Shown: piece after piece, positions 4,170 to 42,218 of the stretch
Position numbering within the stretch: the first letter of the stretch is position 1
Layout of the letters: each line of letters opens with the position of its first letter
Source of the DNA: Myxococcales bacterium
GTDB lineage: Bacteria; Myxococcota_A; UBA9160; SMWR01
NCBI GenBank assembly: GCA_029863845.1
Contig: JAOTUO010000002.1
Location: 1 to 42,218 of the forward strand
Direction of reading: 5' to 3'
Length of the DNA: 42,218 nt
Position numbers and translations under genes: made by a program
The notes under the pieces: generated by a model
The model's database searches: none
Told to the model about the DNA's origin: nothing
What the model saw: only the letters and a program-made list of their open reading frames with translations

Positions 4170-5351
4170 TCAGAACTGGTCGAGCATCCAGGGAACGGGT
4201 CCGGCGAACGCAGCGTCGAGGGCGCCGCGTTCCTCGGGCGTGCCGCCGCTGAGCCGCCCGGCGCGCTCCAGCACCGACGTCGAGGCCCAGCCCGTGTAGA
4301 GCGCGGAGAAGGGGCCGACATCGAGGGCCACGGTCCCGCTGCCGCCGGACTCGAGGCGACCCCGGCCCTTGCTCACGGTGAGGACGAAGCGCCCGTCGTT
4401 GGTCGGGAGGATCGGGTCGCGCAGCGCGAGATCCACCTGCACGTCCACGCCGGGCGCGAATCCCCGCGCTTCGACGGCGCCCGCCGCATCGACCATTCGC
4501 GTCATCCAGCGAACCTCGGCGACCACCTCGAGCGACTGCTCCGGCAGCAGGAGCAGCAGCGGGTCCTCCGCCGAGCCGCGATAGATCACCCGATCGGCCT
4601 GGGACGACCACGAGCCGAGCAGTCGCCACAGCGCGGCCGCGGCGTCGCGGCCGGTCGCCACGGCGTCTTCCACGCCGAGCACGAAGGGCCCGCCGAAGGC
4701 GCTGTGCTCCCCGGGGACCTGGTGGTAGACGAGGTAGCCCTCGATCTCGCCGCCGTCGCTCTCCGCGACATAGACGCGTCGCTCGCTCCACACGTCCCGG
4801 AGCAGTGCCCACCAGTGCTCGGAGCGGTCGACGAATCCGTTCACGCTTTGCGCCAGGCGCGCGTAGCAGGCCCGGAGCGACTCCCACTCGTCCGGCCCAC
4901 AGGGGCGAACGCGCCCACCTTCGGGCGCCGCGATGGAACGCAGCACGCGGGGAGCGATCCGGCGCCACAGATAGGTGCCGGCGACCTCCCAGCCGAGGCT
5001 GCGGTACAGCGAGGTGGTGGCCGGGAACAGCGTCGAGATGACTTGGCCGCGCTCGAGCATCGCCTTCAGCACCGCGACGATCACCCGCCCGGCGACGCCC
5101 TGACCGCGCCGGTCGGGCGACACCGCGACCGACGCGAGCCCGCCCATGGGAACCGAGCGGCCGCCGAAGAACTGCCCCAACTCGTGCGCACCCGTCATCG
5201 CCACCAGGCGGCCACCGTCGAAGGCCCCGACGAGGCGCGACGGGTCCCAGCGCAGGAAGCGATCGCGGTGCTGCGCCGGAGCGTTGAACGAGTAGCGGTC
5301 CAGCTCCCACGCCTGTTCGAGCTCGTCCTCGCGAAGGCTTCGGATCTCCAC
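4170..5351 (-). CDS. Eis-like GNAT family N-acetyltransferase (GNAT plus SCP2-like C-terminus)
   Basis: Inner GTG (VEIRSLREDELEQAW...) of ORF 4170..6272, in frame. Acetyl-CoA-binding region RRGQGVAGRVIVAVL. The ~393-aa length and domain order are typical of Eis-type enzymes. The upstream part of the long ORF is antisense to the GT2 gene and Arg/Ala-rich. Confidence 0.75.
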   Translation of the reverse strand: MEIRSLREDELEQAWELDRYSFNAPAQHRDRFLRWDPSRLVGAFDGGRLVAMTGAHELGQFFGGRSVPMGGLASVAVSPDRRGQGVAGRVIVAVLKAMLERGQVISTLFPATTSLYRSLGWEVAGTYLWRRIAPRVLRSIAAPEGGRVRPCGPDEWESLRACYARLAQSVNGFVDRSEHWWALLRDVWSERRVYVAESDGGEIEGYLVYHQVPGEHSAFGGPFVLGVEDAVATGRDAAAALWRLLGSWSSQADRVIYRGSAEDPLLLLLPEQSLEVVAEVRWMTRMVDAAGAVEARGFAPGVDVQVDLALRDPILPTNDGRFVLTVSKGRGRLESGGSGTVALDVGPFSALYTGWASTSVLERAGRLSGGTPEERGALDAAFAGPVPWMLDQF

Positions 5352-5438
5352 GGCACCCGACGCTATCGTCGATGGCCGACTTTCGCCCGCGGCGCGCGGT
5401 CGGATACGCTGGGCGGGGATCGACTCATCGGAGGCCCC

Positions 5439-6452
5439 GTGCCGGAAGCTCCGCCCCGCGTCTCGGTGCTGCTCCCGGTCTTCGACGCCGAGGCCACGCT
5501 GGCCGCCTGCCTGCGCAGCATCCAGCGCCAGACCGAGCGCGATTTCGAGTGCGTGATCGTGGATGACGGCTCGCGCGACGGGAGCCTCGCCTGCGCGCGC
5601 GGCGTGGCCGCCGCCGACGCGCGCTTCCGCGTCGTCCGCGAGAGCCACCGCGGCCTCGTCGCCGCGCTCAACGCCGGCCTCGCCCTCTGCCGCGGACGCT
5701 TCGTCGCGCGCATGGACGCGGACGACCTCATGCACCGCGATCGTCTCGCGGCCCAGACCGCCGCGCTCGAAGCCGACCCGGAGCTCGCGGCGGTGGGCTC
5801 GCACGTGCGCCTCTTCCCGCGCCGCGCCCTCGGTAACGGCATGCGCGCCTACGAGCGGTGGCTCGCGAGCATCGACTCGCCCCGGCGGGTGCGCGAGGAG
5901 GCCTTCGTCGAGTGCCCCATCGCCCATCCCACGCTCGTGGCGCGCCGCGAGGTGCTGGGGGCGCTTCGCTACCGCGATCGCGGCTGGCCGGAGGACTACG
6001 ACCTCGTGCTGCGCCTGCTCGAGGGCGGACACCGCGTGAGCGTCGTACCGCGGCGGCTGCTCGCCTGGCGTCACGGTGCCGGGCGGCTCTCGCGCAGCAG
6101 TCCCGATTATGCAATCGCGCGCTTCACCGCCTGCAAGGCCGCCTTCCTCGCCCGCGGTTTCCTCGGCACCTCGGACCGCTACGTGCTGTGGGGTTACGGC
6201 GCCACCGGCCGGTCCCTGTGTCGGGCCCTGCGCGACCGTGGCAAGCGCCCCGCGGCCATCGTCGAGCTGCACCCGGGACGCATCGGCGAGACCATCCAGG
6301 GTGCTCCCGTGATCGCGCCCGAGGCGCTCGCCTCGCGCCCCGTCGAGCCGCTCGTGGTCTCCGTCGCCCGCGAGCGAGCGCGCGGCGAGATCCGCGCGGA
6401 GCTCTCCAAGCTCGGCTATCGCGAGACCCGCGACTACGTCTGCGCCGCGTAG
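5439..6452 (+). CDS. family 2 glycosyltransferase with a C-terminal Rossmann-like extension
   Basis: VSVLLPVFDAEATLAACLRSIQRQT, VIVDDGSRDGS and MDADD (DxD) motifs of GT-A family 2. The start is placed at in-frame GTG 5439, just before the conserved N-terminus, and is uncertain. Divergent from the Eis-like gene. Confidence 0.75.
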   Translation: MPEAPPRVSVLLPVFDAEATLAACLRSIQRQTERDFECVIVDDGSRDGSLACARGVAAADARFRVVRESHRGLVAALNAGLALCRGRFVARMDADDLMHRDRLAAQTAALEADPELAAVGSHVRLFPRRALGNGMRAYERWLASIDSPRRVREEAFVECPIAHPTLVARREVLGALRYRDRGWPEDYDLVLRLLEGGHRVSVVPRRLLAWRHGAGRLSRSSPDYAIARFTACKAAFLARGFLGTSDRYVLWGYGATGRSLCRALRDRGKRPAAIVELHPGRIGETIQGAPVIAPEALASRPVEPLVVSVARERARGEIRAELSKLGYRETRDYVCAA

Positions 6453-6462
6453 TCAGAGAACC

Positions 6463-6582
6463 GCGGCGGAGCCGGGAGGATCCCGCAGCGAAATCAAGCG
6501 CAGGCCGCCCGTGGTCTCCGGATGTCGGAACCAAGTGCGCGCGGCCGAGCCATTCGCGGAGGGATCCTCCCGGCTCCGCCGC
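6463..6582 (+). repeat. palindromic intergenic element, copy 1 (120 bp)
   Basis: Perfect 22-bp terminal inverted repeat GCGGCGGAGCCGGGAGGATCCC / GGGATCCTCCCGGCTCCGCCGC. It encloses conserved box A GCAGCGAAATCAAGCGCAGGCC, a 36-nt core and box B GGCCGAGCCATTCGCGGA. Lies between the convergent stops of the GT2 gene and asnS. Confidence 0.9.
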
Positions 6583-6656
6583 CTACGGCCGTGCAATCGG
6601 GGCCGCGCGGCGTTCGCGATCGGCGGTCGCCGGCTCGGCTCGTCGAACCGTCGCGC

Positions 6657-8044
6657 CTAAAAGTCCACGTAGCCGGGGACGCGCGGGAACGGAATCACGT
6701 CCCGGATGTTCGCCATCCCGGTCATGAACTGGACGACGCGTTCGAAGCCCAGGCCGAAGCCCGCGTGGGGCGCCGAGCCGTAGCGCCGCAGGTCCAGGTA
6801 CCAGCCGTAGCGCTCCTCGGGCAGGCCGCAGTCGCGCATGCGCCGGCGCAACACGTCGAGGCGGTGCTCGCGCTGCGAGCCGCCGACGATCTCGCCGACT
6901 TTGGGCACGAGGACATCCATGGCACGCACGGTCCGCTCGTCGTCGTTCAGGTACATGTAGAAGGCCTTGATGGCGGCCGGGTAGTCGGTGACGATGACGG
7001 GCCGGCGGATGTGCTGCTCGGTGAGGTAGCGCTCGTGCTCGCTCTGGAGGTCGGCGCCCCACTTCACCGGAAACTCGAAAGACTCGCCGCTGCGCTCCAG
7101 GATCTCGACCGCCTCGCCGTAGGTAATGCGCTCGAAGGGCGTCTCGATGACGTGGGTCAGCGTGGCGATGACGCTGTCGTCGATGCGTTGGTTGAAGAAG
7201 GCCATGTCGTCGGGACACTGTTCGAGGACGCTGCGGAAGACCTGCTTCAGAAAGGCCTCGGCGAGGTCCATGTCGCCGGCGAGATCGCAGAAGGCCATCT
7301 CCGGCTCCACCATCCAGAACTCGGCGAGGTGGCGGCTGGTGTTGGAGTTCTCGGCCCGGAAGGTGGGGCCGAAGGTGTAGACCCGGCTGAGGGCGAGAGC
7401 GGCGATCTCGGCCTCGAGCTGCCCCGAGACCGTGAGGTAGGCCTCCCGGCCGAAGAAATCGCGACCGAAGTCGACCCGGCCCTCTCCGTCGCGCGGCGGG
7501 TTCGAGGGGTCCAGGGTCGACACCCGGAACATGTCGCCCGCCCCTTCGGCGTCCGAGGCGGTGATGATCGGCGAGTGGAGGTGGATGAAGCCGCGCTCCT
7601 GGAAGAATGCGTGGATCGCTCGGGAGGCCGCATTGCGCACGCGGAGCACGGCCCCGATGGTGTTGGTGCGCGGCCGCAGATGCGCCAGGGTGCGCAGGAA
7701 CTCGAAGGAGTGGCGCTTCTTCTGGAGCGGGTAGTCGGGGTCGACGGTGCCCACCACCTCGACGCGGCGCGCCCTCAGCTCGAAGCGCTGCCCCTTTCCG
7801 GGCGAGTCGACCAACTCGCCCATCGCGGCGACGGCGCAGCCCGTGCCCAGCGGCCGCAGCTCGGCCTCGTAGTTCTCGAGCGCCGGGTCCACCACGACCT
7901 GGAGCCCGGCGAAGCAGGAGCCGTCGGCGACCTCGAGAAAGCTCACACCCTTCGAGTGGCGGGCGGTGCGGATCCAGCCGCGGACCGTCGCCTCGCCGCC
8001 CGCCGCCTCGCGGGCGAGGATCTCGCGGATCGACTCGCCGCCGC

Positions 8045-8048: not shown

Positions 8049-9475
<1,427 letters not shown>

Positions 9476-9547: not shown

Positions 9548-12500
9548 TCAGAGCGTCACGATCTCGTCTCGGCGCAGGTACCAGAGCTCGAAGCGCGGCG
9601 TATACGCCAGCGCGAACGCCTCCCGCACGGCGCGGCGGTAGACGGCGCCCTGGCCCACGTAGGTGAGGCTGTACTCGGAGAGCGGCGTCTCGGGGGATAC
9701 GCGGTCGGTCTTGTAGTCGGCGATGACCAGCTCGTCCGATTCGGGATCGCGGTAGAGCAGGTCGATCGCACCCGAGACGTAGGCGGCGGGGCCGCCGTCC
9801 GCGTCCGGCGGCGCCAGCACCGGAAGCTCGCGGGCGACGACGCAGCCGGCGAGCGAGCGGAGCCGCGAGAAGAGACGGCCCGCGACGAGCGCGTCGAACA
9901 GCGCTCGCGCGTCTGCGACCGCCGCTGCGAGGCTCTCGGGCTCCACCAGCGCGCTCAGATCGCCCTCGAGCGCGTCGCGCCACCGCGCGAACTCGGCTTC
10001 GGGTTCGACCTCGAGGTCGAACTCCTCGAGCGCGCGGTGCAGCGCCGTACCGACGGCACGCGCGACCTCGGCGGGCGACGCCGTCGCAGCGGCTTCGCCG
10101 GCCGCGCGGTCGGCGCGCTGCTCGCGCCAGTCGCGGGAGCCGTCATCCGAGGCGGCGGCGCCGAAGCGGCGTTCGCGCTGGGCGGCGACGCGATCGCGCT
10201 CGGTCCGCAGGCGGCGCGCGTCGCGCTCGATCTCGGCGGGTCGGGGCAGCGCGGCGTCCCCGGCCTGCGCCCACGCCACCGACGGCGGCCGCTCGCGTGA
10301 GAGCGACGGGAAGACCCAACGCGCCGCGGCGGCGTCGAAGAAGTCCGCCTCACCGCGCTCGACGAGCCGTCCCAGCTCGGCGTCGAAATCCGGCGCCGGG
10401 AGCGCCCGCGCCCGCAGCAGGCCCGCGTGGGATCCCCGCCCGTCCTTCCCGGGATCCGGCCAGCGGCCGGAGAGCACCAGCCGGGACTTCGCGCGCGTCA
10501 TCGCCACGTAGAGCGTGCGCACAGTCTCGGCCTCGGCGACCCGATCGCGCGCCTGGCGCACCCGGTCGAAGCCCGGCGTCGGCGCCCCGAAGAGCGCGTA
10601 CTCCATGCGGCCGTCGACCGCCGCGGCGGGAACGCGCCCGGCCCCGGCGCCGCCCGATCCCTTGTGCAGCTGCATCACGTAGACGTGCTCGAAGTCGAGG
10701 CCCTTGGCGCCGTGAATCGTCAGGATCTGCACGGCGTCGTCCACGACCTCGCGCGGCGTGGCCTCCTCGGCCACCTCCTCGTCGCGCACGGCGCTTCGAA
10801 GTCGGCGCAGGACCGCGTGGCGGTTGGCTCCCTCGCACAGCTCCTGCGTGAGCTCGCGGAAGAAGCGCTCCAGATTGGCGGCGCGCCAGGGACCGAGGAA
10901 GCGCGCCGCCTCACTCGCCTCGAAGAGCAGCGCGGTGCGCAGCCGCTCGACGAAGACGTCAGGCGGGTCGCGGCGGGCAGAGCGGCGAAGCTCCTTCAGG
11001 GCGTCGATGGCGGCCAGCAGGTTGCTCTCCCAGCCCTCCACGCGCTCGCACCCGGGAACGTCCGACGGCAGGGAGACCGCCGCGGCGCGCACGCCGTCGG
11101 CGAGCTCCGCACACTTGTCCGGGGTGAGGTCCTCGAGATTCGTCAGGAGCGAGGGAAAGTCGCGGCGCCACAGCGGGAGCAGCGCGGCGTCCGGTACGCC
11201 GACGGCTGCCGAGCGCAGGAAGGCGAGGAGCGCCAGGTGGTCGTTGGGATCGAGCGCGCTGCGCACCAGCGCGGACGCGTCGATGATCTCGCGGCGCTGG
11301 TAGTAGCTGCGATCTCCCACCACCGCGTACGGCACACCGGCCTCGCGCAGGGCGCCGAGATAGATGTCCCACTCGCCCCGACTGCGGAAGAGGACGCCGA
11401 CGCCCTTCCACGCCACGCCATGGTCGTCGTGGAGCGCGCGGAGGTCGCGGGCCAGGGCGGTGGCCTCGATTCGCGCGGCGGCGGCCGCGGCAGTCGACGT
11501 CCGGACGCCCGCGGCGCGATCGACCGTGTCGGGCAGCCAGAACTCGACCGGGGCGAAGCGTCCGGCGGCGAAGCCGCCCGCGTCCCGGTTCTCGGGGCTC
11601 GGGACGAGCACCTGGAAGGGCGGCTGTACGCCCTCGCGCGGCACCAGGAGGGGCGCCGCGATCCGCTCGACCTCGTCGAGAACGGCCGGCACGGACCGGT
11701 AGTTGACCGACAGGCGGCGGCGAAGGCCGCCGGCCTCCTCGACGTCCCGAACGAACGCGTCGTACGCGGCGAGGTCGGCGCTGCGCCAGCCGTAGATCGA
11801 CTGCTTCGGATCGCCCACGAGGAAGAGTCCTGGACGCGACGACTCCGGGCCCTCGAGCGCGACCGCATGCACGATCTCGCACTGCCGGCGATCGGTATCC
11901 TGGAACTCGTCGACGAGCAGCTGATCGACGCGGTCCCTGACGCGCGCCGCCGCATCGGGTCGACTCGCGAGAAGGTGGGCCGTCTCAGTGAGCAGGCCCG
12001 AGAAGCTCAACACCCCGCGCGCGCGAAGCTGCGCTTCGACCGCGCCGAGCAGCGCGACCACCACCCGCCGGCCGCGGTCGAGACGCTCCAGGTCGAGGCT
12101 CGCGAGGTGCCGGATCAGCCCTGCGAGATCGGCGGCGGGCTCGGCCAGCGCCTCCGTCCGGTCGCCGAGGGCATTGCCCTCCTTCGTGCCGAACTTCCCA
12201 CGCGCCCATTCCCCGAGCCGGCCGACCTCGTTGTCCTGCCACTGCACCCCGAGCCACGCCAGGAACGCTTCGAATTCCGAGCGGGTCGAGAAGGGCTCCT
12301 GCTCCAGCCGCGTGACGGTCTGGCGGATGCGCGCGCTCGTCGCCTCCGCGACGCGGACGCCGCACGCATCCATGCAGTCCCCGGTGGCGGCCCGTACGGC
12401 TTCGAGTGACTCGCGCAGCCGATCTCGCAGGTGCTCGAGGCGATCGGGGGCAAGCGGGTCGCTCTCGAGCGCCTCGGCAGAGACCCCCTCCGAGAGAAGC

Positions 12501-13159
12501 GCGCACACCTCCGCCTCGATCGCGCGCGGACCCGCGTCCACTTCCGCCAGCGCCAGATAATCCGGATCGCCGGGGTCGTCGTACGCCGCGCGCAGTCGAG
12601 CCTCCAGCACGTCGCGCACCACCTCCGCCTGGCGCCGGCCCTCTGCGTCGATTTCGAGCCGAGGGTGCAGCTGCGCCTCGAGCGGATACAGCGAGAGGAG
12701 ACGGCGGCACCACGCGTGGATGGTGTGCACCTCGAGGTAATCGAGGGCGCTGCGCAGCGCCCGCGTGCGCTCGCGTCGCAGCGATGCCACCGGCAGGCAG
12801 TCCTCGACGACGCCGACCGGGAGCTCTCCACGCTCGACGCCGCGCAGCGCCGCGTCGACGCGCGTCGCCATCTCGGCCGCCGCCGCCTCGGTGAAGGTGA
12901 TGGCGACGACGCCCGACAGGACGCGCGCGGCCACGTGGTGATCGAGCCCCGCGGCGCCGTCTGCCCCACGCAGCGCGGCGGCCGCGCGCTCCCAGCCCTC
13001 GCCCAGGGTCCAGGCTGTGATGCGCGATACCAGGGCGGCGGTCTTGCCGGTGCCCGCACCGGCCTCGAGCATGAAGGGCCGGTCGAACACCTGCTGCGCC
13101 AGGCGGCGGGCCTCCGCGTCTTCGCGCCGCAGCTCCGCGACGCGCGCGTCTTCCGTCAC
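9548..13159 (-). CDS. addA: AddA-type UvrD-family helicase/nuclease (double-strand break repair)
   Basis: Inner GTG of ORF 9548..13450, in frame. Helicase motifs EAGAGTGKTAAL, LLVDEFQDTD, VGDPKQSIYGWRSAD and LYVAMTRAKSRLVLSG. C-terminal PD-(D/E)XK nuclease (IDLLYRD...LVIADYKTDR). The start overlaps the addB stop (GTGA). Confidence 0.88.
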   Translation of the reverse strand: MTEDARVAELRREDAEARRLAQQVFDRPFMLEAGAGTGKTAALVSRITAWTLGEGWERAAAALRGADGAAGLDHHVAARVLSGVVAITFTEAAAAEMATRVDAALRGVERGELPVGVVEDCLPVASLRRERTRALRSALDYLEVHTIHAWCRRLLSLYPLEAQLHPRLEIDAEGRRQAEVVRDVLEARLRAAYDDPGDPDYLALAEVDAGPRAIEAEVCALLSEGVSAEALESDPLAPDRLEHLRDRLRESLEAVRAATGDCMDACGVRVAEATSARIRQTVTRLEQEPFSTRSEFEAFLAWLGVQWQDNEVGRLGEWARGKFGTKEGNALGDRTEALAEPAADLAGLIRHLASLDLERLDRGRRVVVALLGAVEAQLRARGVLSFSGLLTETAHLLASRPDAAARVRDRVDQLLVDEFQDTDRRQCEIVHAVALEGPESSRPGLFLVGDPKQSIYGWRSADLAAYDAFVRDVEEAGGLRRRLSVNYRSVPAVLDEVERIAAPLLVPREGVQPPFQVLVPSPENRDAGGFAAGRFAPVEFWLPDTVDRAAGVRTSTAAAAAARIEATALARDLRALHDDHGVAWKGVGVLFRSRGEWDIYLGALREAGVPYAVVGDRSYYQRREIIDASALVRSALDPNDHLALLAFLRSAAVGVPDAALLPLWRRDFPSLLTNLEDLTPDKCAELADGVRAAAVSLPSDVPGCERVEGWESNLLAAIDALKELRRSARRDPPDVFVERLRTALLFEASEAARFLGPWRAANLERFFRELTQELCEGANRHAVLRRLRSAVRDEEVAEEATPREVVDDAVQILTIHGAKGLDFEHVYVMQLHKGSGGAGAGRVPAAAVDGRMEYALFGAPTPGFDRVRQARDRVAEAETVRTLYVAMTRAKSRLVLSGRWPDPGKDGRGSHAGLLRARALPAPDFDAELGRLVERGEADFFDAAAARWVFPSLSRERPPSVAWAQAGDAALPRPAEIERDARRLRTERDRVAAQRERRFGAAASDDGSRDWREQRADRAAGEAAATASPAEVARAVGTALHRALEEFDLEVEPEAEFARWRDALEGDLSALVEPESLAAAVADARALFDALVAGRLFSRLRSLAGCVVARELPVLAPPDADGGPAAYVSGAIDLLYRDPESDELVIADYKTDRVSPETPLSEYSLTYVGQGAVYRRAVREAFALAYTPRFELWYLRRDEIVTL

Positions 13160-16100
13160 GCCCCCTCCCCGAGCTTCCAGCCCCCGAGGAGCGCCCGCTC
13201 GGCGGGGCTGCGGTCTCGCGCGGCCGCGTCGGCGCCCGTCCAGCCCTCGAGTCGGCGCCGCGCCCCCGAGTCGCCGCGCAGGCAGGCGACCCTCACCTCG
13301 CACCACCCACAGCGATCGGGCTCCCTCCCCTTGGCGTCGGCCAGACGCGGGAAGAAGGCGCCGCGATCCCACACCTCGAGCACGCTTCGCACGGCGGACT
13401 CGAACGCCGCGGCGAATGCCTCGTCGTCGGAGCGCACTTCGAGGCTGCACGCGTGCTCCGGCGTCTCGGGGCTCAGGAACAGGTAACGCCCCCGGGCCGG
13501 TGCGCAGCGCCCGCCCGCCCGGGCGTAGGCGGTCGCCTGGAGCATCTCACCGCGGGCGACGCGCTGGCGATGGTGCTCCTCCCGAATCGAGAGCGTCTTC
13601 TGCGTGTCGGGCGGCTTTCCCGTCTTGTAGTCGGTGAGACACAACCCGCCCTCGCTGCGGTCGACGCGGTCCGCCCGAAAGCGCACCGTCCGCTCTCGCC
13701 CCTGCGCATCGCGCAACGCGACGGAGCCGGTCAGCTCGGCGCCGAGCACCGCAACCGCCGCGCTCGGCTCGGACCAGTCTCGTTCCCGTGCGATCTCGAG
13801 GCGCGCGTGAGCGCGCTTCGCCAGGATGCGCTCGAAGCCTCGCAGCGCGATCCCCTCCTCGCGCGCCACCGACTCCGCGCAGCTGCGAACCATCGCGTCG
13901 AGGGTCTCGGCGTCGGGCCAGCGCACCGGTACCGGATCGCGGCGCCATGCCGCGTCGAGATCCCCGGGCGCGTCTCCGAGCTCCTGCACCGCGATCCGCT
14001 CGAGCGCGCGGTGGACGACGCTTCCCAGGACCCGGGGCTCGACTCCGGGGAGATCCCCGAGCGAGTCGGGCGGGAGCTCGAGCCGAAGAACGCGGCTCAG
14101 GAACGTGCGCCACGGACATCCGGCCAGGTCCTCCAGGACGGTCACGTACGGAGTTTCCCCGGCCGCCGTACCCGGGGGTCCGCCCGTGTAGCCGAAATAG
14201 GGGCCCGGGTCGCGGGGCTGGCTCGAAGGGGGATCGAGCTCGGCGAGCACCGCGCAGCGCGAGCGAGCGAGGGCAAGCGGCTCCGCCCTTTCCGTGCGGG
14301 GACCCTCCGACGCCCCCTCGTCGAGGGCAATCCGCAGCACGCGTTCGAAGCGCTTGCGCGACCCGTAGAGCCCGGCCAGGATCGCGTGCTCGTGGGCGGG
14401 ACGCGGCGGGCGCGAGGCGTCCGGTCGTCCCGGCGCGCAGACCCCGTAAAGCGAGGGAATCGCATCCGGCTCGGGCACGGTCCCATCGGACTGGAGTCGC
14501 TCGACGAGCGGTGAAACGGGGTGCGGCTTGCCGTCGTCGTCGGTGATCGGACACGAGAGCGTGACCTCCGGGCTCGCCGACAGGAGCTGCGCGAACAGGT
14601 AGCGGTCCTCGTCGTGGCCCTCCGACTTGACGGGAAGGTCGGGAAGCACGGCGCGCAGGCGCCTTCGCAGCGCGTCGGACAGCAGTGGATCCTCGGCGAC
14701 CGGTCGGGGAAAGAGGCCCCGTCCGAGGCCCATCACGAACAGGTGGTCGAACGTGCGCGCGCGCGCCTCCATCACGTTCAGGACCGCGACGCCGGCGCCC
14801 TCGCCGCCGAGCGGCGTCGAGCCTGCGCCCCCCAGCACCCGGCCGAGCAGGAGGATGAAATCGTCGCGGCCCAGCTCGACGTCGCCGGGAAGCTCGGCCC
14901 GAGGCGCGAAGATCGCCGCCTCCAGCGCGCTCCGTTCGCGAGCGTCGCTCCGCCAGTTCAGGTCATCGTCGATCAAACGGCGCAGCCACTCGCGATGCGC
15001 GTCCAGTCGATCGCGTTCCGGCTGGTGAGTGAAGCGCTCGTCCAGGGACCGGGCTGCGGCGATGGCGCGCTCGAGAAGCGCGCGGTGGATTCGCCGGTGC
15101 GGGAGCCGGCCCGCCCCGGCGTCGTCCTCCCGAAGACCGCTGCGCACCGGAAGCGCGAGCGCCTCTTCGCTCTCCGGCTCGGAGATCTCCAGCGACGCCG
15201 CGTCCACCAGGCGTGCGGCGCCCCGCGCGTGGAGGGCCAGGCCGAGGTCGGCCAGCTCGACGCTCGTCGCCTCCGGCGACGAACGCCCGGGGAACACGCA
15301 CAGGTCGAGCCAGCGCTCTGCGGGCAGGCGCGGGCCCTGCGCGACGAGCTCCAGCAGGGCCGCGATCCGGCCGCCGACCTCATCGTTCGGCCCGCGCTCG
15401 CCCAATGCCGAGAAGGGGATCCCCAGCCGCCCGAAGTGCAGGCGCAGCGGCACCGCGTACGCCGCGAGGCCGCGCGCCACGACACCGATCCGCTCCGCCC
15501 GAGCCCCGGCGTCGAGCAGTGCGCGCACGCGATCCGCCACGCCACGAGCCTCCGCGTGGGGACCGGGCGCTCGCAGCACCGCGACCCGCGGGCGCTCGCC
15601 GCGCGGGGCGACGGTCTCGACGCCGCCCGCGGCGCTCTCGAGCCGCTCGCCGAAGCGTCGGGTGAACTCCGTCTCGGACGCGCCTTCGGCGGATGCGGGG
15701 TCGCGCGGGTGATCGAGGAGGACCCGGGCGCCGCCGTATCGCACCAGCGCCTCGATCCAATCGGCCTGAACCCCGGTGGCGTCGGCGAAGCCGTGTACGA
15801 AGAGCGCCCGACAGGGCAGCGCGCCCGCCGGGTCGCTTTGGAAGCGCTCGCGCGCCGCGCGGAAAAGCTGGGAGCGGTGACGGAGGCCGTGCTCCGCGAG
15901 GCTCGTCCCGACCCGCGCCGCCACGCGCACCAGCGCCCGGGCCCGCTCGGCCTCGGGGCCCACCTCGCCGGCGGCGAGGATTCCCTCGTCGAGGACCTCG
16001 GCGTGGTGGGGCTCGAAGCCGGCGTCGAGCAGGTCGGCGACGCCGGCCTCGACCGGACCGTAGCCGTCGACGAACGGCTCGAAGCCGTCGCGCAGGACCG

Positions 16101-16425
16101 GCTCGGCGCGCGCGAGCCGGCGCACCATCACCGCGAACAGCGCCGAGCCCACGGGCGCGCCCTCCCCCGTCCGCTCGGCGATCTCGAGGGCGAACGAGTA
16201 CAGGGTTCGAATCGAGATGCCCGCCACGGCACCGAACTCCGCCACGACGACGGCCGAGAGATGCTCGCGCAGGCTGCGCGACGGAACGACGATCCGCAGC
16301 GGCGCGACGAGCCGACCCGGCTCCCGGATGCCCGCTTCGAGCAACGGGCGCAGCGCGCCGAGCAGGCTGGCTTCGACGGCCCGCGGCCCCTGGCCGATCC
16401 GCAGCGGATGGGTTCCCCTCGTCAT
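13156..16425 (-). CDS. addB: AddB-type nuclease subunit with Fe-S cluster
   Basis: C-terminal RecB-like nuclease (LCLTDYKTGKP, LQATAYARA). The Cys set GCPW ... CGWCEVRVAC fits the AddB iron-staple cluster. The N-terminal helicase-like domain is degenerate. The start is set at the internal ATG (MTRGTHPL) preceded by GAGAGAGG; the ORF extends to 16488. Confidence 0.85.
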   Translation of the reverse strand: MTRGTHPLRIGQGPRAVEASLLGALRPLLEAGIREPGRLVAPLRIVVPSRSLREHLSAVVVAEFGAVAGISIRTLYSFALEIAERTGEGAPVGSALFAVMVRRLARAEPVLRDGFEPFVDGYGPVEAGVADLLDAGFEPHHAEVLDEGILAAGEVGPEAERARALVRVAARVGTSLAEHGLRHRSQLFRAARERFQSDPAGALPCRALFVHGFADATGVQADWIEALVRYGGARVLLDHPRDPASAEGASETEFTRRFGERLESAAGGVETVAPRGERPRVAVLRAPGPHAEARGVADRVRALLDAGARAERIGVVARGLAAYAVPLRLHFGRLGIPFSALGERGPNDEVGGRIAALLELVAQGPRLPAERWLDLCVFPGRSSPEATSVELADLGLALHARGAARLVDAASLEISEPESEEALALPVRSGLREDDAGAGRLPHRRIHRALLERAIAAARSLDERFTHQPERDRLDAHREWLRRLIDDDLNWRSDARERSALEAAIFAPRAELPGDVELGRDDFILLLGRVLGGAGSTPLGGEGAGVAVLNVMEARARTFDHLFVMGLGRGLFPRPVAEDPLLSDALRRRLRAVLPDLPVKSEGHDEDRYLFAQLLSASPEVTLSCPITDDDGKPHPVSPLVERLQSDGTVPEPDAIPSLYGVCAPGRPDASRPPRPAHEHAILAGLYGSRKRFERVLRIALDEGASEGPRTERAEPLALARSRCAVLAELDPPSSQPRDPGPYFGYTGGPPGTAAGETPYVTVLEDLAGCPWRTFLSRVLRLELPPDSLGDLPGVEPRVLGSVVHRALERIAVQELGDAPGDLDAAWRRDPVPVRWPDAETLDAMVRSCAESVAREEGIALRGFERILAKRAHARLEIARERDWSEPSAAVAVLGAELTGSVALRDAQGRERTVRFRADRVDRSEGGLCLTDYKTGKPPDTQKTLSIREEHHRQRVARGEMLQATAYARAGGRCAPARGRYLFLSPETPEHACSLEVRSDDEAFAAAFESAVRSVLEVWDRGAFFPRLADAKGREPDRCGWCEVRVACLRGDSGARRRLEGWTGADAAARDRSPAERALLGGWKLGEGA

Positions 16426-16562
16426 CGCCTCTCTCTGGACGTGCAGACTACCAGTAGGATGGGCGTGCGGCGTGACTGCCGCGGTCACGCTCTTCGAAAC
16501 CCGTAACTTACTGTTATTACTTGTATTTCAAGGGATCCTGCGGGACCGGGAGCAGATCGGCC

Positions 16563-19546: not shown

Positions 19547-20122
19547 GTGCGCAATACAGCCCGTTTCGTCGTCGCCGCCGCTGCGTTTCTCGCGCTGCTG
19601 GGCGGGCTCCCCGGATGCGCCGCAGCGGAGGAGAACCCCGTGGTCGTCTTCACCACCTCCCTGGGAGAGATCCAGATCGAGCTCTACCCCGACAAGGCGC
19701 CGAAGTCCGTCGAGAACTTCCTGGCCTACGTCGACGACGGCTTCTACGACGGGACCGTCTTCCACCGCGTGATCCCGAGCTTCATGATCCAGGGCGGCGG
19801 GATGACCGCGGACATGACGCGCAAGTCCACCCGGCCCCCGATCGAGAACGAGGCGGACAACGGCCTCGAGAACGACATCGGCAGCGTCGCCTTCGCCCGC
19901 ACCCAGGTCAAGGACAGCGCCACGTCGCAATTCTTCATCAACGTGAAGGACAACGACTCCCTCAACCACGGACCCGGAAACGACGGCTACGCGGTCTTCG
20001 GCCGTGTGGCCGACGGGATGGACGTGGTGCAGAAGATCGTCGCGGTGCCGACGGGAACCCGGGCCGGGCACGCGAACGTGCCCACCACGCCCGTGGTGAT
20101 CGAGTCGGCGCGCCGGAAGTAG
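19547..20122 (+). CDS. cyclophilin-type peptidyl-prolyl cis-trans isomerase, probable lipoprotein
   Basis: [20 protein letters not shown] and [14 protein letters not shown] cyclophilin blocks. Signal peptide ending in the lipobox-like LGGLPGC. GTG start. Confidence 0.9.
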
Positions 20123-35914: not shown

Positions 35915-36808
35915 GTGGGAACGACGCACGCGGGAGATCCGATGGCCGAGTCGAGCTTCGAGGGGCGCACGTGCCTGGTCACCGGCGCCAGCTCCGGCGT
36001 CGGCGAGCAGACGGCGCTGGGTCTGGCCCGGCTCGGCGCCCGCGTCGTGATCGTGTGCCGCAGCCGCGAGCGGGGCGAGCGCTCACGCGCGGCGATCGTG
36101 CGGGCGAGCGGCAACCCGGCCGTGGAGCTCCTGCTCGCGGACCTGTCCTCCCAGGCGGCGATCCGCCAGCTCGCAAAGGAGATCCTGGCCGGCGTTCCCG
36201 CCATCCACGTGCTGGTGAACAACGCGGCGGTCGTGAACCTGCGGCGCGCGACGACGATCGACGGACTCGAGGCGACCTTCGCCGTGAACCACCTGGCCTA
36301 CTTCCTGCTGACGAACCTGCTGCGCGAGCGCATCGTCGCCAGCGCGCCGGCGCGGATCGTGAACGTGGCCTCCGACGGGCACAAGTTCGGCCGCCTCGAC
36401 TTCGACGACCTGCAGCTCGAGCGCCGCTACGGCTGGTGGCGCGCCTACACGGCCTCGAAGCTCGCGAACGTGCTCTTCACCGTCGAGCTGGCGCGGCGGC
36501 TCGACGGCAGCCGCGTCACCGCCAACTGCCTGCATCCGGGCGCGGTGGCTTCGCGGCTGGGCCACAACAACGGCCGCTTCGCGAAGGTCGCGACAGCGCT
36601 CCTCAAGCCCTTCTTCCTGTCTTCCGCCCAGGGCGCTGAGACGTCGATCTGGGCGGCGTCCTCCCCCGAGGTGGAAGGCCTGAGTGGCCGCTACTTCGAA
36701 AAACGCAAGGAAGGGCCCACGTCCGCCGCCGCCCGCGACGAGACGACGGCGAAACGCCTGTGGCAAGAAAGTTGCCGCCTCACCGGCCTCGCCGACGACT
36801 CCCTCTAG
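35915..36808 (+). CDS. short-chain dehydrogenase/reductase (retinol-dehydrogenase-like)
   Basis: TGASSGVG cofactor motif, NNAAV, and catalytic YTASKLAN (YxxxK). GTG at 35915 or ATG at 35942 as start. Confidence 0.85.
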   Translation: MGTTHAGDPMAESSFEGRTCLVTGASSGVGEQTALGLARLGARVVIVCRSRERGERSRAAIVRASGNPAVELLLADLSSQAAIRQLAKEILAGVPAIHVLVNNAAVVNLRRATTIDGLEATFAVNHLAYFLLTNLLRERIVASAPARIVNVASDGHKFGRLDFDDLQLERRYGWWRAYTASKLANVLFTVELARRLDGSRVTANCLHPGAVASRLGHNNGRFAKVATALLKPFFLSSAQGAETSIWAASSPEVEGLSGRYFEKRKEGPTSAAARDETTAKRLWQESCRLTGLADDSL

Positions 36809-36832
36809 TCTGACAGTCCGACCCGACCCAAA

Positions 36833-36994
36833 GGGGGCCCGGGCCGAGGGAAATCCCGCAGCGAAATCAAGCGCAGGCCGCCCTCGGTCTATGCGCGGCA
36901 GCACATCGCACCCGGGTGATTTCCTGCCCGCATGGCACGTGGCTCGTTGGCGGCCGAGCCATTCGCGGAGGGATTTCCCTCGGCCCGGGCCCCC
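36833..36994 (+). repeat. palindromic intergenic element, copy 2 (162 bp)
   Basis: Perfect 25-bp terminal inverted repeat GGGGGCCCGGGCCGAGGGAAATCCC / GGGATTTCCCTCGGCCCGGGCCCCC. It encloses the same box A and box B as copy 1 and a 72-nt core. Lies between the convergent stops of the SDR and AEC genes. Confidence 0.9.
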
Positions 36995-37013
36995 GTCGCC
37001 GCGCCTCTGCCTC

Positions 37014-37886
37014 CTAGGTCACGAGCAGCAGCACGACGGGAATCGAAATGAGGCTTGCGAGGGTTCCAAGCACGATGGCCGAAGCGACGAGCGACGGATC
37101 CGTTCCGTAGCGCTGGGCCAGCACCGCGTTGATCACCGCCGCCGGCATCACCGAGCTGAGCAGCAGCACCTGGCGGTCGACGCCCGCGATTCCGAACAGC
37201 AGCACGAACAGCGACGCGAACGCGATCCCGCCGCCCATGCGGATGGCGACGGCGACCAGAGCGTGGGCGAGGTCGGTCACCTGCAGCAACCGCAGCTGCA
37301 TGCCCAGATTCAGCAGCATCAGCGGGATCGCCATGGCGCCCAGCATCTCGATCGGCTCCATCACGATGCGCGGGAGCGTCGTCTCCGTCAGCGCCAGGCC
37401 GATGCCTCCCACGCTCGCGTACACCAGCGGCAGGCGCAGCGCCTCGCGCAGTCCGTTCTCGCCCTTGGCGATCCAGATGCCGAAGGTCGAGCTCAGGACG
37501 GCCATCGTCACGAACACGATGGCCGCCGCCTCGAGCCCCTCCGGACCGAAGGCGAGCCGCGCGCAGGCGAGCCCCATGTTGCCGGCGTTCCAGAACACCG
37601 CCGGCAGCAGCAACCCCCGCCGCGGGCCCGGCCGGACGCGGAGATAGACGAGCGCCAGCACCGCCGTGCCGGCGGCGATCCACAGCGTGCCCCCCGCCAG
37701 CGCGCCCCACTGGCGCGGCTGGAGGCTCGTTCCCGACAGCACCGAGAACATCAGGGCCGGCGAGGTGACCAGGATGGCGAGGTCGGCCAGGGTCGGCAGG
37801 TGGAGCCGAAAGCGCCGCCCCGCGAGGGCATAGCCGACCGCCACGATGCTGAAGACCGGGACGATGGTGTCGAAGACGAGGGCCAT
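37014..37886 (-). CDS. AEC (auxin efflux carrier) family permease
   Basis: 290 aa, about 10 hydrophobic helices. N-terminus MALVFDTIVPVFSIVAVGYAL and C-terminal SSVMPAAVINAVLAQRYG are typical of the membrane transport protein family. Confidence 0.8.
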   Translation of the reverse strand: MALVFDTIVPVFSIVAVGYALAGRRFRLHLPTLADLAILVTSPALMFSVLSGTSLQPRQWGALAGGTLWIAAGTAVLALVYLRVRPGPRRGLLLPAVFWNAGNMGLACARLAFGPEGLEAAAIVFVTMAVLSSTFGIWIAKGENGLREALRLPLVYASVGGIGLALTETTLPRIVMEPIEMLGAMAIPLMLLNLGMQLRLLQVTDLAHALVAVAIRMGGGIAFASLFVLLFGIAGVDRQVLLLSSVMPAAVINAVLAQRYGTDPSLVASAIVLGTLASLISIPVVLLLVT

Positions 37887-38007
37887 CCGGGCGCCCTACG
37901 CTACCGCGGGAGGGCGGCAGCGCCGAGACCCGGGCGCGGCCCGGTGAACCCCTCGCCGCGTCTCGCTTTTTCGCCGGCTTGACATCTCCCTCAAGTTCTC
38001 CAACACT

Positions 38008-38027
38008 ATATCCGCATAAACGGATAT
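38008..38027. promoter_or_regulatory. inverted repeat, candidate operator in the ahcY promoter region
   Basis: ATATCCG-cataaa-CGGATAT, perfect 7-bp arms. Lies just downstream of TTGACA (37979-37984) and a weak -10-like AACACT at 17-nt spacing, 58 nt upstream of the ahcY ATG. Confidence 0.3.
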
Positions 38028-38084
38028 CATCCCGACCGAACACCGCGTTCGGGCGTCCGCGCTCGAACCGTCAGGGGGACCCCC

Positions 38085-39554
38085 ATGACCGTCGCCACGC
38101 CGGCCTCCGCGCCGGAGCGCCCCGCCTTCAAGGTCGCCGACCTCGACCTCGCCGACCTCGGCCGCAAGGAGATCCGCCTCGCCGAGCACGAGATGCCCGG
38201 GCTGATGGCGGTGCGCGAGCGCTACGTGGAGAGCAAGCCCCTGGCCGGCGTCCGCATCATGGGCAGCCTGCACATGACGGTGCAGACGGCCGTCCTGATC
38301 GAGACGCTCGTCGACCTCGGCGCGGACGTGCGCTGGGTCAGCTGCAACATCTTCTCGACGCAGGATCACGCGGCGGCCGCCGTGGCCGTGGGACCCCACG
38401 GCACGCCGGAGTCGCCGCAGGGCACACCCGTCTTCGCGTGGAAGGGCGAGACGCTCGAGGAGTACTGGTGGTGCACGCTCGAGGCGCTCGCCTGGCCCGA
38501 CGGCTCCGGCCCCCACCAGATCGTGGACGACGGCGGCGACGCCACCCTGCTCGTGCACAAGGGCGTCGAGTTCGAGCAGGCCGGCAAGGTGCCCGACTTC
38601 GATCCCGACGCGGATCCCGAGGAGTGGGGCGTCATTCTCGACGTGCTGCGGCGGCAGCAGCGGCGCGACCCGCACTGGTGGACGCAAATCGCCGAGAGCA
38701 TCCGCGGCGTCTCCGAGGAAACGACCACCGGCGTGCACCGCCTCTACCAGATGCAGGAGGCCGGCACCCTGCTCTTCCCGGCCATCAACGTCAACGACTC
38801 CGTGACCAAGAGCAAGTTCGACAACGTCTACGGCTGCCGGCACTCGCTGCCCGACGGCCTGGCGCGCGCCACCGACGTGATGCTCGGAGGCAAGGTGGCG
38901 GTCGTCTGCGGCTACGGGGAGGTCGGCAAGGGCTGCGCCCAGGCGCTGCGCGGGCAGGGCTGCCGCGTCGTCATCACGGAGATCGATCCCATCTGCGCCC
39001 TCCAGGCGGCGATGGAGGGCTACCAGGTCGTGACGCTGGAGGACGTCGTCGCAACGGCCGACATCTTCGTCACGACGACGGGCAACCGCGACATCATCCG
39101 CGCCGATCACATGGCGCGCATGAAGGACAAGGCCATCGTCGGGAACATCGGCCACTTCGACAACGAGATCGACATGGCCGGCCTCAAGAAGCTGCCCGGC
39201 ATCGAGCGCGTGAACATCAAGCCCCAGTACGACGAGTGGATCTTCGCCGACGGGCACGGCGTGCTGGTGCTGGCCGAAGGGCGCCTGCTCAACCTGGGCT
39301 GCGCGACGGGACACCCGAGCTTCGTGATGTCCGCCTCGTTCACGAACCAGGTGCTGGCCCAGATCGAGCTGGTCCGGAACCGCGAGAAGTACGGACGGGA
39401 GGTCTACGTCCTGCCCAAGGCGCTCGACGAGGAGGTGGCGCGGCTCCACCTCGACCAGCTCGGCGTGAAGCTCACCCACCTGACGCCGGAGCAGGCGGAC
39501 TACCTCGGCGTTCCGGTCGACGGCCCCTACAAGCCCGACCACTATCGCTACTGA
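38085..39554 (+). CDS. ahcY: adenosylhomocysteinase
   Basis: 489 aa. [27 protein letters not shown]-binding [10 protein letters not shown] and C-terminal PYKPDHYRY. Unmistakable family. Confidence 0.97.
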
Positions 39555-39571
39555 GATCACCCCCTCGGCTC

Positions 39572-39603
39572 CGGCGGCGCGCAGAGGCCGCCGCGGAGGC
39601 CTC
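39572..39603 (+). terminator. two mutually exclusive GC hairpins after ahcY
   Basis: CGGCGGC-gcgcagag-GCCGCCG and GAGGCC-gccgcgga-GGCCTC share nucleotides. They lie 18-50 nt after the ahcY stop and 10 nt before the protease start. No U-tract. Confidence 0.25.
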
Positions 39604-39612
39604 CGCTAGAAT

Positions 39613-41598: not shown

Positions 41599-41618
41599 CG
41601 ACCCGGAGGACCCGCGCG

Positions 41619-41888
41619 ATGGCGCTTCGCATCCTGAGCTCGCCCGGAACGCCGGATCGCGTGGTCTCCGATCTGCGCATGGCGATCGAGAGCGCGATCG
41701 ACGGGGCGGAGGTCGAGGTGACGGCGAGCAGTCCGGGACACTTCGAGATCCGCGTGACCAGCGACGCCTTCGCGGGCCGCTCCCGCGTCCAGCAGCAGCA
41801 GCTGGTGTACGCGGCGATCGCGCATCTGATGAAGGGGGACGCCGCCCCGGTCCACGCGATCGACCGGATGCAGACGCAGGTGCCGTAG
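41619..41888 (+). CDS. BolA family protein
   Basis: 89 aa. GHFEIRVTSDAFAGRSRVQQQQLVYAAI ... VHAI matches the BolA/IbaG signature layout. Confidence 0.75.
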   Translation: MALRILSSPGTPDRVVSDLRMAIESAIDGAEVEVTASSPGHFEIRVTSDAFAGRSRVQQQQLVYAAIAHLMKGDAAPVHAIDRMQTQVP

Positions 41889-41901
41889 CGGGACGCGGAG
41901 C

Positions 41902-42061
41902 GCGGCCGGAGCCGGAGGCAATCCCTCCGCGAATGGCTCGGCCATCCCTTGAGAAGGACTTCGTTCGCCTTCGGCTCACTGCGCGGCGGCTCCGCCGCCT
42001 TGCGAAGATTGGGTTGGCCTGCGCTTGATTTCGCTGCGGGATTGCCTCCGGCTCCGGCCGC
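41902..42061 (-). repeat. palindromic intergenic element, copy 3 (160 bp, inverted orientation)
   Basis: Perfect 24-bp terminal inverted repeat GCGGCCGGAGCCGGAGGCAATCCC / GGGATTGCCTCCGGCTCCGGCCGC. The plus strand shows the complement of box B (TCCGCGAATGGCTCGGCC) first and the complement of box A (GGCCTGCGCTTGATTTCGCTGC) last. 72-nt core. Confidence 0.9.
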
Positions 42062-42092
42062 TTTGGCGCATTTCGGCTCCGGTCGCTTCGCC

Positions 42093-42218
42093 TCAGCGTC
42101 GCGCGCGCTTTGCCTTGCTGGGGGGCTCTCGGCGGTTTCGCGCCGCCCGACGCATTTCGGCGAGGGTCATGAGGCGGCCGGTGGCGCCGAGGGCGGTGCA
42201 GTTGAGCGCGGCGGCGCG
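42093..42218 (-). CDS. 3-prime end of a PfkB/ribokinase-family sugar kinase (partial, runs off the window)
   Basis: The minus-strand frame reads ...AAALNCTALGATGRLMTLAEMRRAARNRREPPSKAKRARR-stop. AAALNCTALGA resembles the C-terminal anion-hole helix of PfkB kinases. Only 41 codons are visible. Confidence 0.35.
   Translation of the reverse strand, partial: RAAALNCTALGATGRLMTLAEMRRAARNRREPPSKAKRARR

Follow-up and report, generated by a model that had tools for sequence, protein, structure and literature searches.

In the present work, we examine three long palindromes in a 42,218-nucleotide stretch of DNA, called the window below. The window is a whole contig (JAOTUO010000002.1), and the genomes nearest to it are metagenome-assembled genomes (MAGs) of uncultured Myxococcota, with Prc 71% identical. 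Copy 1 (6463-6582) is located between a GT2 glycosyltransferase gene (stop 6452) and a class II aminoacyl-tRNA-synthetase-like gene (stop 6657), copy 2 (36833-36994) between an SDR gene (stop 36808) and an AEC/Mem_trans permease gene (stop 37014), and copy 3 (41902-42061, inverted) between BolA (41619-41888) and a minus-strand PfkB gene (stop 42093). When re-read, coordinates and sequences were as given in the original prediction, from which this analysis started. The palindromes are copies of a lineage-restricted, non-coding, high-copy hairpin repeat of uncultured Myxococcota that has been inserted behind genes. Each copy consists of two arms, two boxes and a core at the apex, and the parts are as follows.

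6463..6484, plus strand: left arm of copy 1, 22 nt, pairing perfectly with 6561-6582
6485..6506, plus strand: box A of copy 1, GCAGCGAAATCAAGCGCAGGCC, exact match
6507..6542, plus strand: apex (core) of copy 1, 36 nt, of the short class, type III
6543..6560, plus strand: box B of copy 1, GGCCGAGCCATTCGCGGA, exact match
6561..6582, plus strand: right arm of copy 1, 22 nt
36833..36857, plus strand: left arm of copy 2, 25 nt
36858..36879, plus strand: box A of copy 2
36880..36951, plus strand: type I core of copy 2, 72 nt, with the motifs GCCCTCGrTCT.., GGGTGATTTCC and GTTGGC
36952..36969, plus strand: box B of copy 2
36970..36994, plus strand: right arm of copy 2, 25 nt
42038..42061, minus strand: left arm of copy 3 in the orientation of the element, 24 nt
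42016..42037, minus strand: box A of copy 3
41944..42015, minus strand: type II core of copy 3, 72 nt
41959..42007, minus strand: module M, CTTCGCAAGGCGGCGGAGCCGCCGCGCAGTGAGCCGAAGGCGAACGAAG, nested in the core of copy 3
41926..41943, minus strand: box B of copy 3
41902..41925, minus strand: right arm of copy 3, 24 nt
42075-42086: relic beside copy 3, GGCTCCGGTCGC, a duplicate of the 12-nt arm end, downstream of the PfkB stop codon
42105-42120: relic beside copy 3, GCGCTTTGCCTTGCTG, a degenerate reverse-complement box A inside the C-terminal extension of the PfkB frame

Box A is found exactly three times in the window (6485-6506 and 36858-36879 on the plus strand, 42016-42037 on the minus strand), where shuffled sequences lead one to expect none. 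Box B is likewise found exactly three times (at 6543, 36952 and, on the minus strand, 41926), always paired with box A. The perfect outer stems of 22, 25 and 24 bp reported for copies 1, 2 and 3 were found again, and the RNA folding energies of the three copies, −88.8, −115.8 and −105.5 kcal/mol, correspond to z = −8.5, −8.4 and −9.7 relative to shuffled sequences. A search of the window with nhmmer gave no further or relic copies beyond the three. The PfkB frame, which ends at 42093, has a tail (…LAEMRRAARNRREPPSKAKRARR before the stop) that is ca 18 residues longer than that of contig L176 (…RKEMP before the stop). Since this extra coding sequence overlaps the box A relic, debris of the element has apparently been absorbed into the 3′ end of the gene.

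The family was collected by means of an 18-mer of box A against metagenomes, and at least 116 contigs matched, which bears out the high copy number suspected from three copies in 42 kb. Contigs compared with the window, mostly metagenome contigs carrying the box A word, are given L numbers here (L001 etc.). Nearly all true matches to the 18-mer lie in contigs of ca 70% GC; two matches in viral contigs were discarded as chance, the DNA there being 48-52% GC. Among the matches listed, 100 also have box B, at a distance of 44, ca 80 or ca 142 nt, and of these, 53 have a fully paired outer stem and 26 a stem with a single mismatch. The working set consists of the 79 distinct full copies among them whose outer stem reaches 17 bp or more. 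The complete element measures 89-225 nt, and the half-unit ca 46 nt.

The exact 22-mer of box A has no match in 185,579 GTDB species genomes, and the syntenic loci of the nearest MAGs, searched by regular expression and with nhmmer, are without any copy. BLAST searches against plasmids and phages gave no match to the element. As for known RNA families, the window has no Rfam match at gathering score, and at E <= 10 over each copy there are sub-threshold matches only, mostly to generic hairpins; among these are mir-642 (37.9 bits against a gathering score of 90), MIR1858, PyrR204 and terC. The absence of the element from GTDB genomes may be due to the breaking up of assemblies at the repeats. 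Short-read contigs of the lineage often end in or next to an element (the ends of L001 and L002, many box A contigs, P0121-P0125): L002 stops inside copy 3, and the Mem_trans homologues are on contigs of 1.1-1.25 kb.

What is kept in the outer stem is base pairing and not sequence, in agreement with what had been deduced from the three window copies. In an alignment of 40 copies with a type I core, two-sided changes are seen at 20 of 21 pairs, and paired cells make up 98.9% of the whole structure and 98.1% of the outer stem. The observed value is reached by none of 500 shuffles, and slid partners give at most 48.5%. The alignment of type II copies gives the same covariation picture. The arms had been described as copy-specific; their sequences do differ, but they are not unrelated, since they have a common, if loose, consensus, GCGGCCGGGGCCGAGGnnGATCCC. 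Over the 79 copies, the conservation signal ends 24 nt from the boxes on both sides, and the column composition gives GCGGCC.../...GGCCGC as the ends of the element. The termini are the most variable paired part, while the boxes in the middle of the stem are the most conserved part. The inner arm ends are usually GATCCC/GGGATC, which places two facing GATC sites at the base of the boxes in ca 80% of the copies (6479-6484 and 6561-6566 in the window). One subfamily (L024, L063, L066, L068, L079, L088, L105, L107, L112, L115) has the same boxes and a type I-like core together with entirely different arms, GTCGCCGGAGGAAGGGATGGGGGCC, on contigs that are mostly of 74-76% GC (69-76% across those listed). 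Such a pattern points to boxes that are deeply conserved or else to transfer between lineages.

When box A is compared with the reverse complement of box B, the two match at 14 of the 18 box B positions, with 4 extra nucleotides in box A. The element is thus an imperfect inverted duplication of an arm-plus-box unit of ca 46 nt. On sequence comparison, the conserved 'unpaired' bases correspond to the indel and mismatch positions of this imperfect palindrome; they could also constitute a recognition site for a protein or a ribonucleoprotein, as was proposed originally. The boxes, which had been called invariant, are exact in all three window copies but only near-invariant across the family, where the loop and the GGA vary. 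In a search anchored on box B plus complementary arms, roughly a tenth of the copies had an altered box A, the AUCAA loop being the part most often affected. A possible interpretation of the 3x3 loop GCA/GGA is G·A, C-G and A·G, and L073 has the swap GGA/GCA, with the same geometry. In 8 copies with differing arms and core types, the GGA of box B has become TGC, the exact complement of the GCA of box A. A ninth copy has a box B with a matching CGC, and the reverse change was never seen.

The cores were also said to be variable. Their lengths of 36, 72 and 72 nt in the window are correct, but they are not free-form and belong to about four classes. The type I core (ca 72 nt) was seen only inside elements, and neither a consensus structure nor covariation is predicted for it. 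The type III core has 36 nt, the type II core consists of one or two tandem copies of a module M (ca 50-62 nt), and one near-coreless element (L016:6012-6100) is 89 nt in total. Module M, with the sequence pattern GCGCAGYGAGCCGMAGGCGARCGRAG, is laid out as GCAAG, a variable co-varying hairpin and then GCGCAGYGAGCCGMAGGCGARCGRAGTYCA. There are 12 cases of it outside elements, including four M-like matches (within 7530-7600, 8360-8392 and 19766-19911) in L122, a GTDB Myxococcota MAG without the main element; two of these are full copies, with a co-varying hairpin stem and a conserved 3′ tail. The module forms tandem units of ca 62 nt and also occurs alone just behind stop codons. Besides the window and L122, it is present in L034, L036, L053, L111, L074, L110, L049, L089 and L103, and it has no counterpart in Rfam, nor does it match any viral contig exactly. 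Since the module occurs outside elements, type II cores are nested insertions of a second repeat.

The two strands of the stem are not equivalent. In the 32 loci with one or two stem mismatches, the strand that reads from box A to box B has 21 G·T or T·G mismatches against 3 A·C or C·A (p = 3e-4), and 16 purine·purine against 3 pyrimidine·pyrimidine; in the full set, the asymmetry count is 32 against 8. Either C residues of the A-to-B strand are preferentially mutated, or the least destabilising mismatches are tolerated, and both causes imply that the A-to-B strand exists folded on its own. Read-through RNA should favour the strand that is transcribed most, and the main read-in, which comes from the box B side, gives the opposite strand. 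This tips the interpretation towards a single-stranded DNA form, possibly similar to those of the REP/RAYT, IS200/IS605 and attC systems, with an independently transcribed RNA being compatible as well.

That the palindromes have been inserted follows from related contigs. In the syntenic L170 (BolA 89% identical), the SDR/Mem_trans spacer at the site of copy 2 is 27 nt with no element, and the BolA and PfkB genes overlap where the window holds copy 3. L177, L119 and L121 are likewise without the element at the corresponding sites, and there is no copy in ca 72 kb of L181-L186 (BolA 76-80% identical). As the orthologous sites are empty, it is the whole palindrome, arms included, that was inserted. 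We also considered the case in which the boxes invaded hairpins, of a REP-like or terminator family, that were there beforehand, entering them at the tip. This was ruled out: of 146 arm-like motifs, 138 adjoin box A or box B in reverse complement, and not a single hairpin of two arms and a loop was seen that lacked the boxes. The empty sites of L170 and L177 are too diverged for a base-by-base alignment of the junctions. Direct target-site duplications, which had been reported absent in the window, do not flank the window copies and were not found at any of the 79 distinct copies either. The same 79 copies show no target motif, merely a weak A at −25 and a C-rich stretch at +25 to +30.

The copies in the window start 10, 24 and 13 nt past the stop codons of the GT2, SDR and BolA genes, and all three have convergent neighbours, precisely as first described. 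On an approximate gene map, 3 of the 8 convergent junctions of the window hold a copy, and the other five junctions are at most 70 nt. For the family, gene context was called by a frame caller based on third-codon-position GC (GC3). Gene 3′ ends make up 84 of 115 callable flanks (p = 8e-7), and the elements lie 2-98 nt behind the stop codons. Convergent siting is preferred (convergent:tandem:divergent 22:13:4 against an expected 1:2:1, p = 3e-5) but is not exclusive. Stop codons are nearer on the box B side, at a median distance of 19 nt compared with 34 nt on the other side (p = 0.01). Orientation is independent of the direction of transcription, with 9 elements one way and 4 the other in tandem contexts. 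The right-hand gene reads into the element B-to-A in 49 of 62 cases, and the left-hand gene A-to-B in 35 of 53. The facts that orientation does not follow transcription and that read-in is more common from the box B side argue against a purely 3′-untranslated-region (3′-UTR) RNA explanation. No terminator-like site was found in 6000-7000 and 36400-42218, the regions that hold all three copies, and no U tract follows the stem, the next 6 nt being 43-55% C and 12-22% T (79 copies). A scan of the regions around the copies for the sigma-70 consensus, the only one scanned, gave no promoter site. When 528 open reading frames (ORFs) from 102 contigs were clustered, only ordinary paralogues recurred as neighbours: NtrC-type regulators, extracytoplasmic function (ECF) sigma factors, acyl-CoA synthetases, HtrA and SDRs. 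In L046, two inverted copies enclose a gene that, judged by eye, does not resemble a transposase.

A few observations on the gene map of the window can be added. The ORFs 4170-6272 (minus) and 4704-6452 (plus) overlap by 1.5 kb, which is a high-GC shadow-ORF artefact; Pfam places an Eis-like GNAT/SCP2 protein at ca 4170-5350 (minus) and the GT2 glycosyltransferase at ca 5460-6452 (plus). At 9548-16488 on the minus strand there are two very long frames, of ca 1300 and 1110 residues, with coding-like GC3.

Orthologous copies show how the element changes in place. At the BolA site, the window has a type II core and L174, L175 and L176 a type I core, with one compensated arm change. L021 and L052 are orthologues with a type I and a type III core, respectively, and between the orthologues L016 and L069 all four of four arm changes are compensated and the core class differs. 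By our own tally, arms of orthologous pairs differ at ca 8.5% of positions and flanks at ca 15%, and by our own arithmetic there are ca 12 two-sided changes against an estimated ca 0.6 by chance. Template switching during replication is a documented way of fixing stems, and multi-base reverse-complement changes, at rates of the same order as in the flanks, are the expected product of template switching between the arms of a quasipalindrome (PMC8794818, PMC8604942). Perfect compensation therefore need not mean selection on each copy, and selection for pairing is probably not the whole explanation.

Larger changes are seen as well. In L178 (934-1094, compared with 36833-36994 of the window), the Mem_trans-proximal arm is kept, the inner unit is inverted and the core is of type II, while the distal arm is a non-matching one and another gene follows downstream. 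Two copies have apparently recombined here, with a rearrangement of the chromosome as the result. L038 (minus strand, ca 6030-6340) has a tandem array of four units of arm plus box A, and L110 (8248-8720) has seven units of box B, arm and ca 17 nt of flank. The duplication in L045 includes 32 nt of unique flank, L095 has a head-to-tail dimer, and L078 is listed with these array contigs; one element in this set starts inside the core of another. The junctions of the half-element arrays cluster at or near the border between box and core.

The original prediction could not match the architecture to known repeats. REP sequences, as described in PMC3733652, have a conserved GTAG or CGTC tetranucleotide at one end. 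The Myxococcota element is too long for REP/BIME (89-225 nt against a unit of 20-40 nt), has a half-unit of ca 46 nt, is not built from a small palindromic unit, and has no GTAG/CGTC tag in the ends or flanks of the 79 copies. With the RAYT-mobilised REPINs (Bertels & Rainey 2011, PMC3116915) it shares two inverted repeat units around a spacer that form a long hairpin in single-stranded DNA or RNA, hundreds of extragenic copies, compensatory hairpin changes, ordered clusters or arrays, singlet remnants and a presumed activity of the single strand. REPINs differ in that their ends are the most conserved part and their middle is variable and compensated, which is the reverse of what is seen here; the Myxococcota element moreover lacks the tag, is longer and carries an apex of modular type. 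The single-copy RAYT gene (a Y1 HUH transposase) that accompanies REPs and REPINs, usually with the repeats on either side of it, was not found here in a search of low power.

Integron attC sites are imperfect single-strand hairpins with paired boxes and unpaired spacers, in which one-sided extra bases give the strand its identity, and with an apex of a few to more than 100 nt. All this they have in common with the present element, and an attC-like recognition logic may, by analogy, apply. However, there are no RYYYAAC/GTTRRRY core sites in its boxes or arms, its copies are dispersed in both orientations between housekeeping genes and do not form co-oriented cassette arrays next to an integrase gene, and a variable 24-bp stem lies outside its conserved boxes.

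Pneumococcal BOX elements have the form boxA-boxB(n)-boxC, in which the middle module is present 0, 1, 2 or more times. In architecture this A-B(n)-C arrangement is the closest counterpart. Shared with it, and with ERIC and Correia-type repeats, are partly complementary end modules around a repeatable middle, an intergenic position mostly downstream of genes, stable hairpins and the non-coding nature. BOX is, on the other hand, unrelated in sequence and found in another phylum, and in the Myxococcota element the middle module M is an independent repeat and the outer stem is highly variable yet compensated. Membership in ERIC, BOX, Correia or RUP is implausible, with Myxococcota as the taxon and 70% GC speaking against it. 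Finally, quasipalindrome correction by template switching (PMC8794818, PMC8604942, PMC7202029) accounts for multi-base compensated changes, arm homogenisation and possible spacer inversion, each of which is observed in the present family. It is a mutational process and not an element family, and it leaves dispersal and the retention of asymmetric boxes unexplained. In our view the family is a new relative of hairpin repeats already described, REPINs and BOX among them, and belongs with the interspersed hairpin-forming non-coding repeats, without being categorically new.

We now consider what the element does. The reading that we favour, with a probability of roughly 0.5, is that it is a non-autonomous hairpin element, mobile or recently mobile, which acts via one DNA strand and whose arms are kept by template switching. 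The element, an imperfect inverted duplication of a unit of ca 46 nt (a 24-nt arm plus a box), is closed by an exchangeable apex: a core of 36 or 72 nt, module M in one or two copies, or next to no sequence at all. In the proposed mechanism, the DNA strand that reads from box A to box B would fold into a long hairpin, in which the asymmetric internal loops formed by mispairing of box A and box B would identify the strand and be the module that a trans-acting enzyme, encoded elsewhere, recognises. Such recognition can be likened to that of REP or IS200/IS605 hairpins by HUH/Y1 transposases, or of the extrahelical bases of attC by IntI. The outer stem would need only to pair; its complementarity would be kept mainly by a hairpin-templated template switch, in which one arm is corrected from the other, and in addition by selection for stems that can fold. 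Recombination or gene conversion would homogenise the inner part and exchange it among copies, and would also yield hybrids, half-element tandem arrays and chromosomal rearrangements.

A more specific version, which we put forward only tentatively and hold to be doubtful, is that the element is the substrate of a strand-specific enzyme (HUH-type, tyrosine-recombinase-type or other) that would read the mid-stem loops of boxes A and B on a folded single strand and perform the cut or strand transfer at the border between box and apex. Cutting at this border would lead to exchange of the apex, to nested M modules and further elements at that position, and to half-element arrays.

It is important to note that several observations weigh against the mobile single-strand element. 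The G·T excess is a classic signature of transcribed RNA and could equally mean selection at the RNA level. The loop bases are taken as a recognition signal, yet the AUCAA loop is the most variable position of box A (AUAAA, AUAGA, AUCAC, AUCGA). The copies were gathered by the exact box A word, so that box conservation is overestimated and the invariance of box A is partly an artefact. No target-site duplication, target motif or exactly alignable empty site was found that would define the ends and the transposition chemistry. Neither an excision nor a very recent insertion event was observed, and copies persist at orthologous sites across ca 10% protein divergence, which means that the family may be weakly mobile or no longer mobile. 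No transposase or recombinase gene adjoins any copy, and when E. coli RayT was compared by phmmer with the six-frame ORFs (70 residues or longer) of the window and the collected contigs, nothing matched at E <= 10, although a search confined to these sequences has low power.

The alternative that survives best is a host-exapted RNA element, i.e. a 3′-UTR hairpin that works as a bidirectional terminator without a U-tract, as a roadblock or as a stabiliser against exonucleases, the boxes being the site of an RNA-binding protein or RNase and the stems being under selection in each copy. It would agree with the position of the elements 2-98 nt behind stop codons, mostly between convergent genes, with the very stable folds, the covariation and the preference of G·U over A·C, and with arms that are paired at orthologous sites. 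REP and ERIC repeats have, furthermore, been reported to stabilise mRNA. On the other hand, the A-to-B strand favoured by the G·U mismatches is not the one most often read into, the tandem orientation is 9 against 4 the 'wrong' way, and a C-rich flank without a U-tract follows the stem. Close relatives do without the element at the same junctions (spacers of 0-27 nt), which makes it dispensable. Selection on each copy would slow the divergence of the arms more than is seen, and half-element arrays and relics resemble the debris of selfish DNA. Taken together, we consider the RNA element to be unlikely, although still a serious competitor.

An improbable explanation is a family of small structured RNA genes with their own promoter, which would give an A-to-B transcript with a 24-bp stem for processing (e.g. 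by RNase III) and an RNA that works with a protein partner. The strand-specific mismatch spectrum and the conservation of the internal-loop sequence across subfamilies with entirely different arms (74-76% GC contigs, L063-L115) would suit it, and a modular apex is found in many RNAs. However, the sigma-70 scan, confined to that consensus, revealed no promoter-like site, and there is no Rfam family. The type I core has neither consensus structure nor covariation, and at one and the same locus the core class can change or be missing. It would also be atypical of RNA genes to come as hundreds of copies, dispersed and in either orientation, along with truncated arrays.

We give similarly little credence to a spread that needs no dedicated machinery, by replication slippage, template switching, unequal or ectopic recombination and gene conversion on hairpin-prone sequence. 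These processes could produce the half-arrays with junctions at the box/core border, the duplications that include flanks, the hybrids, the core swaps and the templated corrections. They leave unexplained, however, how at least 100 insertions came to be scattered over unrelated sites, ending cleanly 24 nt from the boxes, and why the boxes are near-identical in subfamilies with unrelated arms.

Least probable of all is a classical cut-and-paste miniature inverted-repeat transposable element derived from an insertion sequence, with the 24-bp arms as terminal inverted repeats bound by a DDE transposase and the interior as filler: the inverted repeats (20-25 bp stems), the size of 90-225 bp, the many intergenic copies and the presence/absence polymorphism are as expected, but there are no flanking direct repeats in 79 copies, the termini are the least and the interior boxes the most conserved part, opposite to transposase-bound repeats, compensated changes in the arms and strand-asymmetric mismatches are unexpected for a double-stranded DNA substrate, and the 0.57 Mb of contigs that bear the element showed no parent insertion sequence sharing its ends.

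If the favoured reading is true, the family would be a well-populated and structurally unusual addition to the short list of persistent non-autonomous hairpin repeats of bacteria. It would, to our knowledge, be the first such family in uncultured Myxococcota, as a literature search turned up none described. The inverted conservation, with variable paired ends, a conserved asymmetric middle and an exchangeable apex, provides a natural test of how hairpin elements are recognised, with at least 100 copies and several orthologous series, and the same data can be used to test how much of 'compensatory evolution' is templated mutation and how much is selection. Given genomes, the contrast of the contigs that bear the element (the window, L174-L176) with those that lack it at the same sites (L170, L177) or throughout (L181-L186) makes the partner gene findable. 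For the lineage itself, the repeats break short-read assemblies and mediate rearrangements. Should the strand-specific enzyme acting in the middle of the stem prove true, the family would represent a new class of hairpin-mobilised element, with attC-like recognition and dispersed, REPIN-like propagation.

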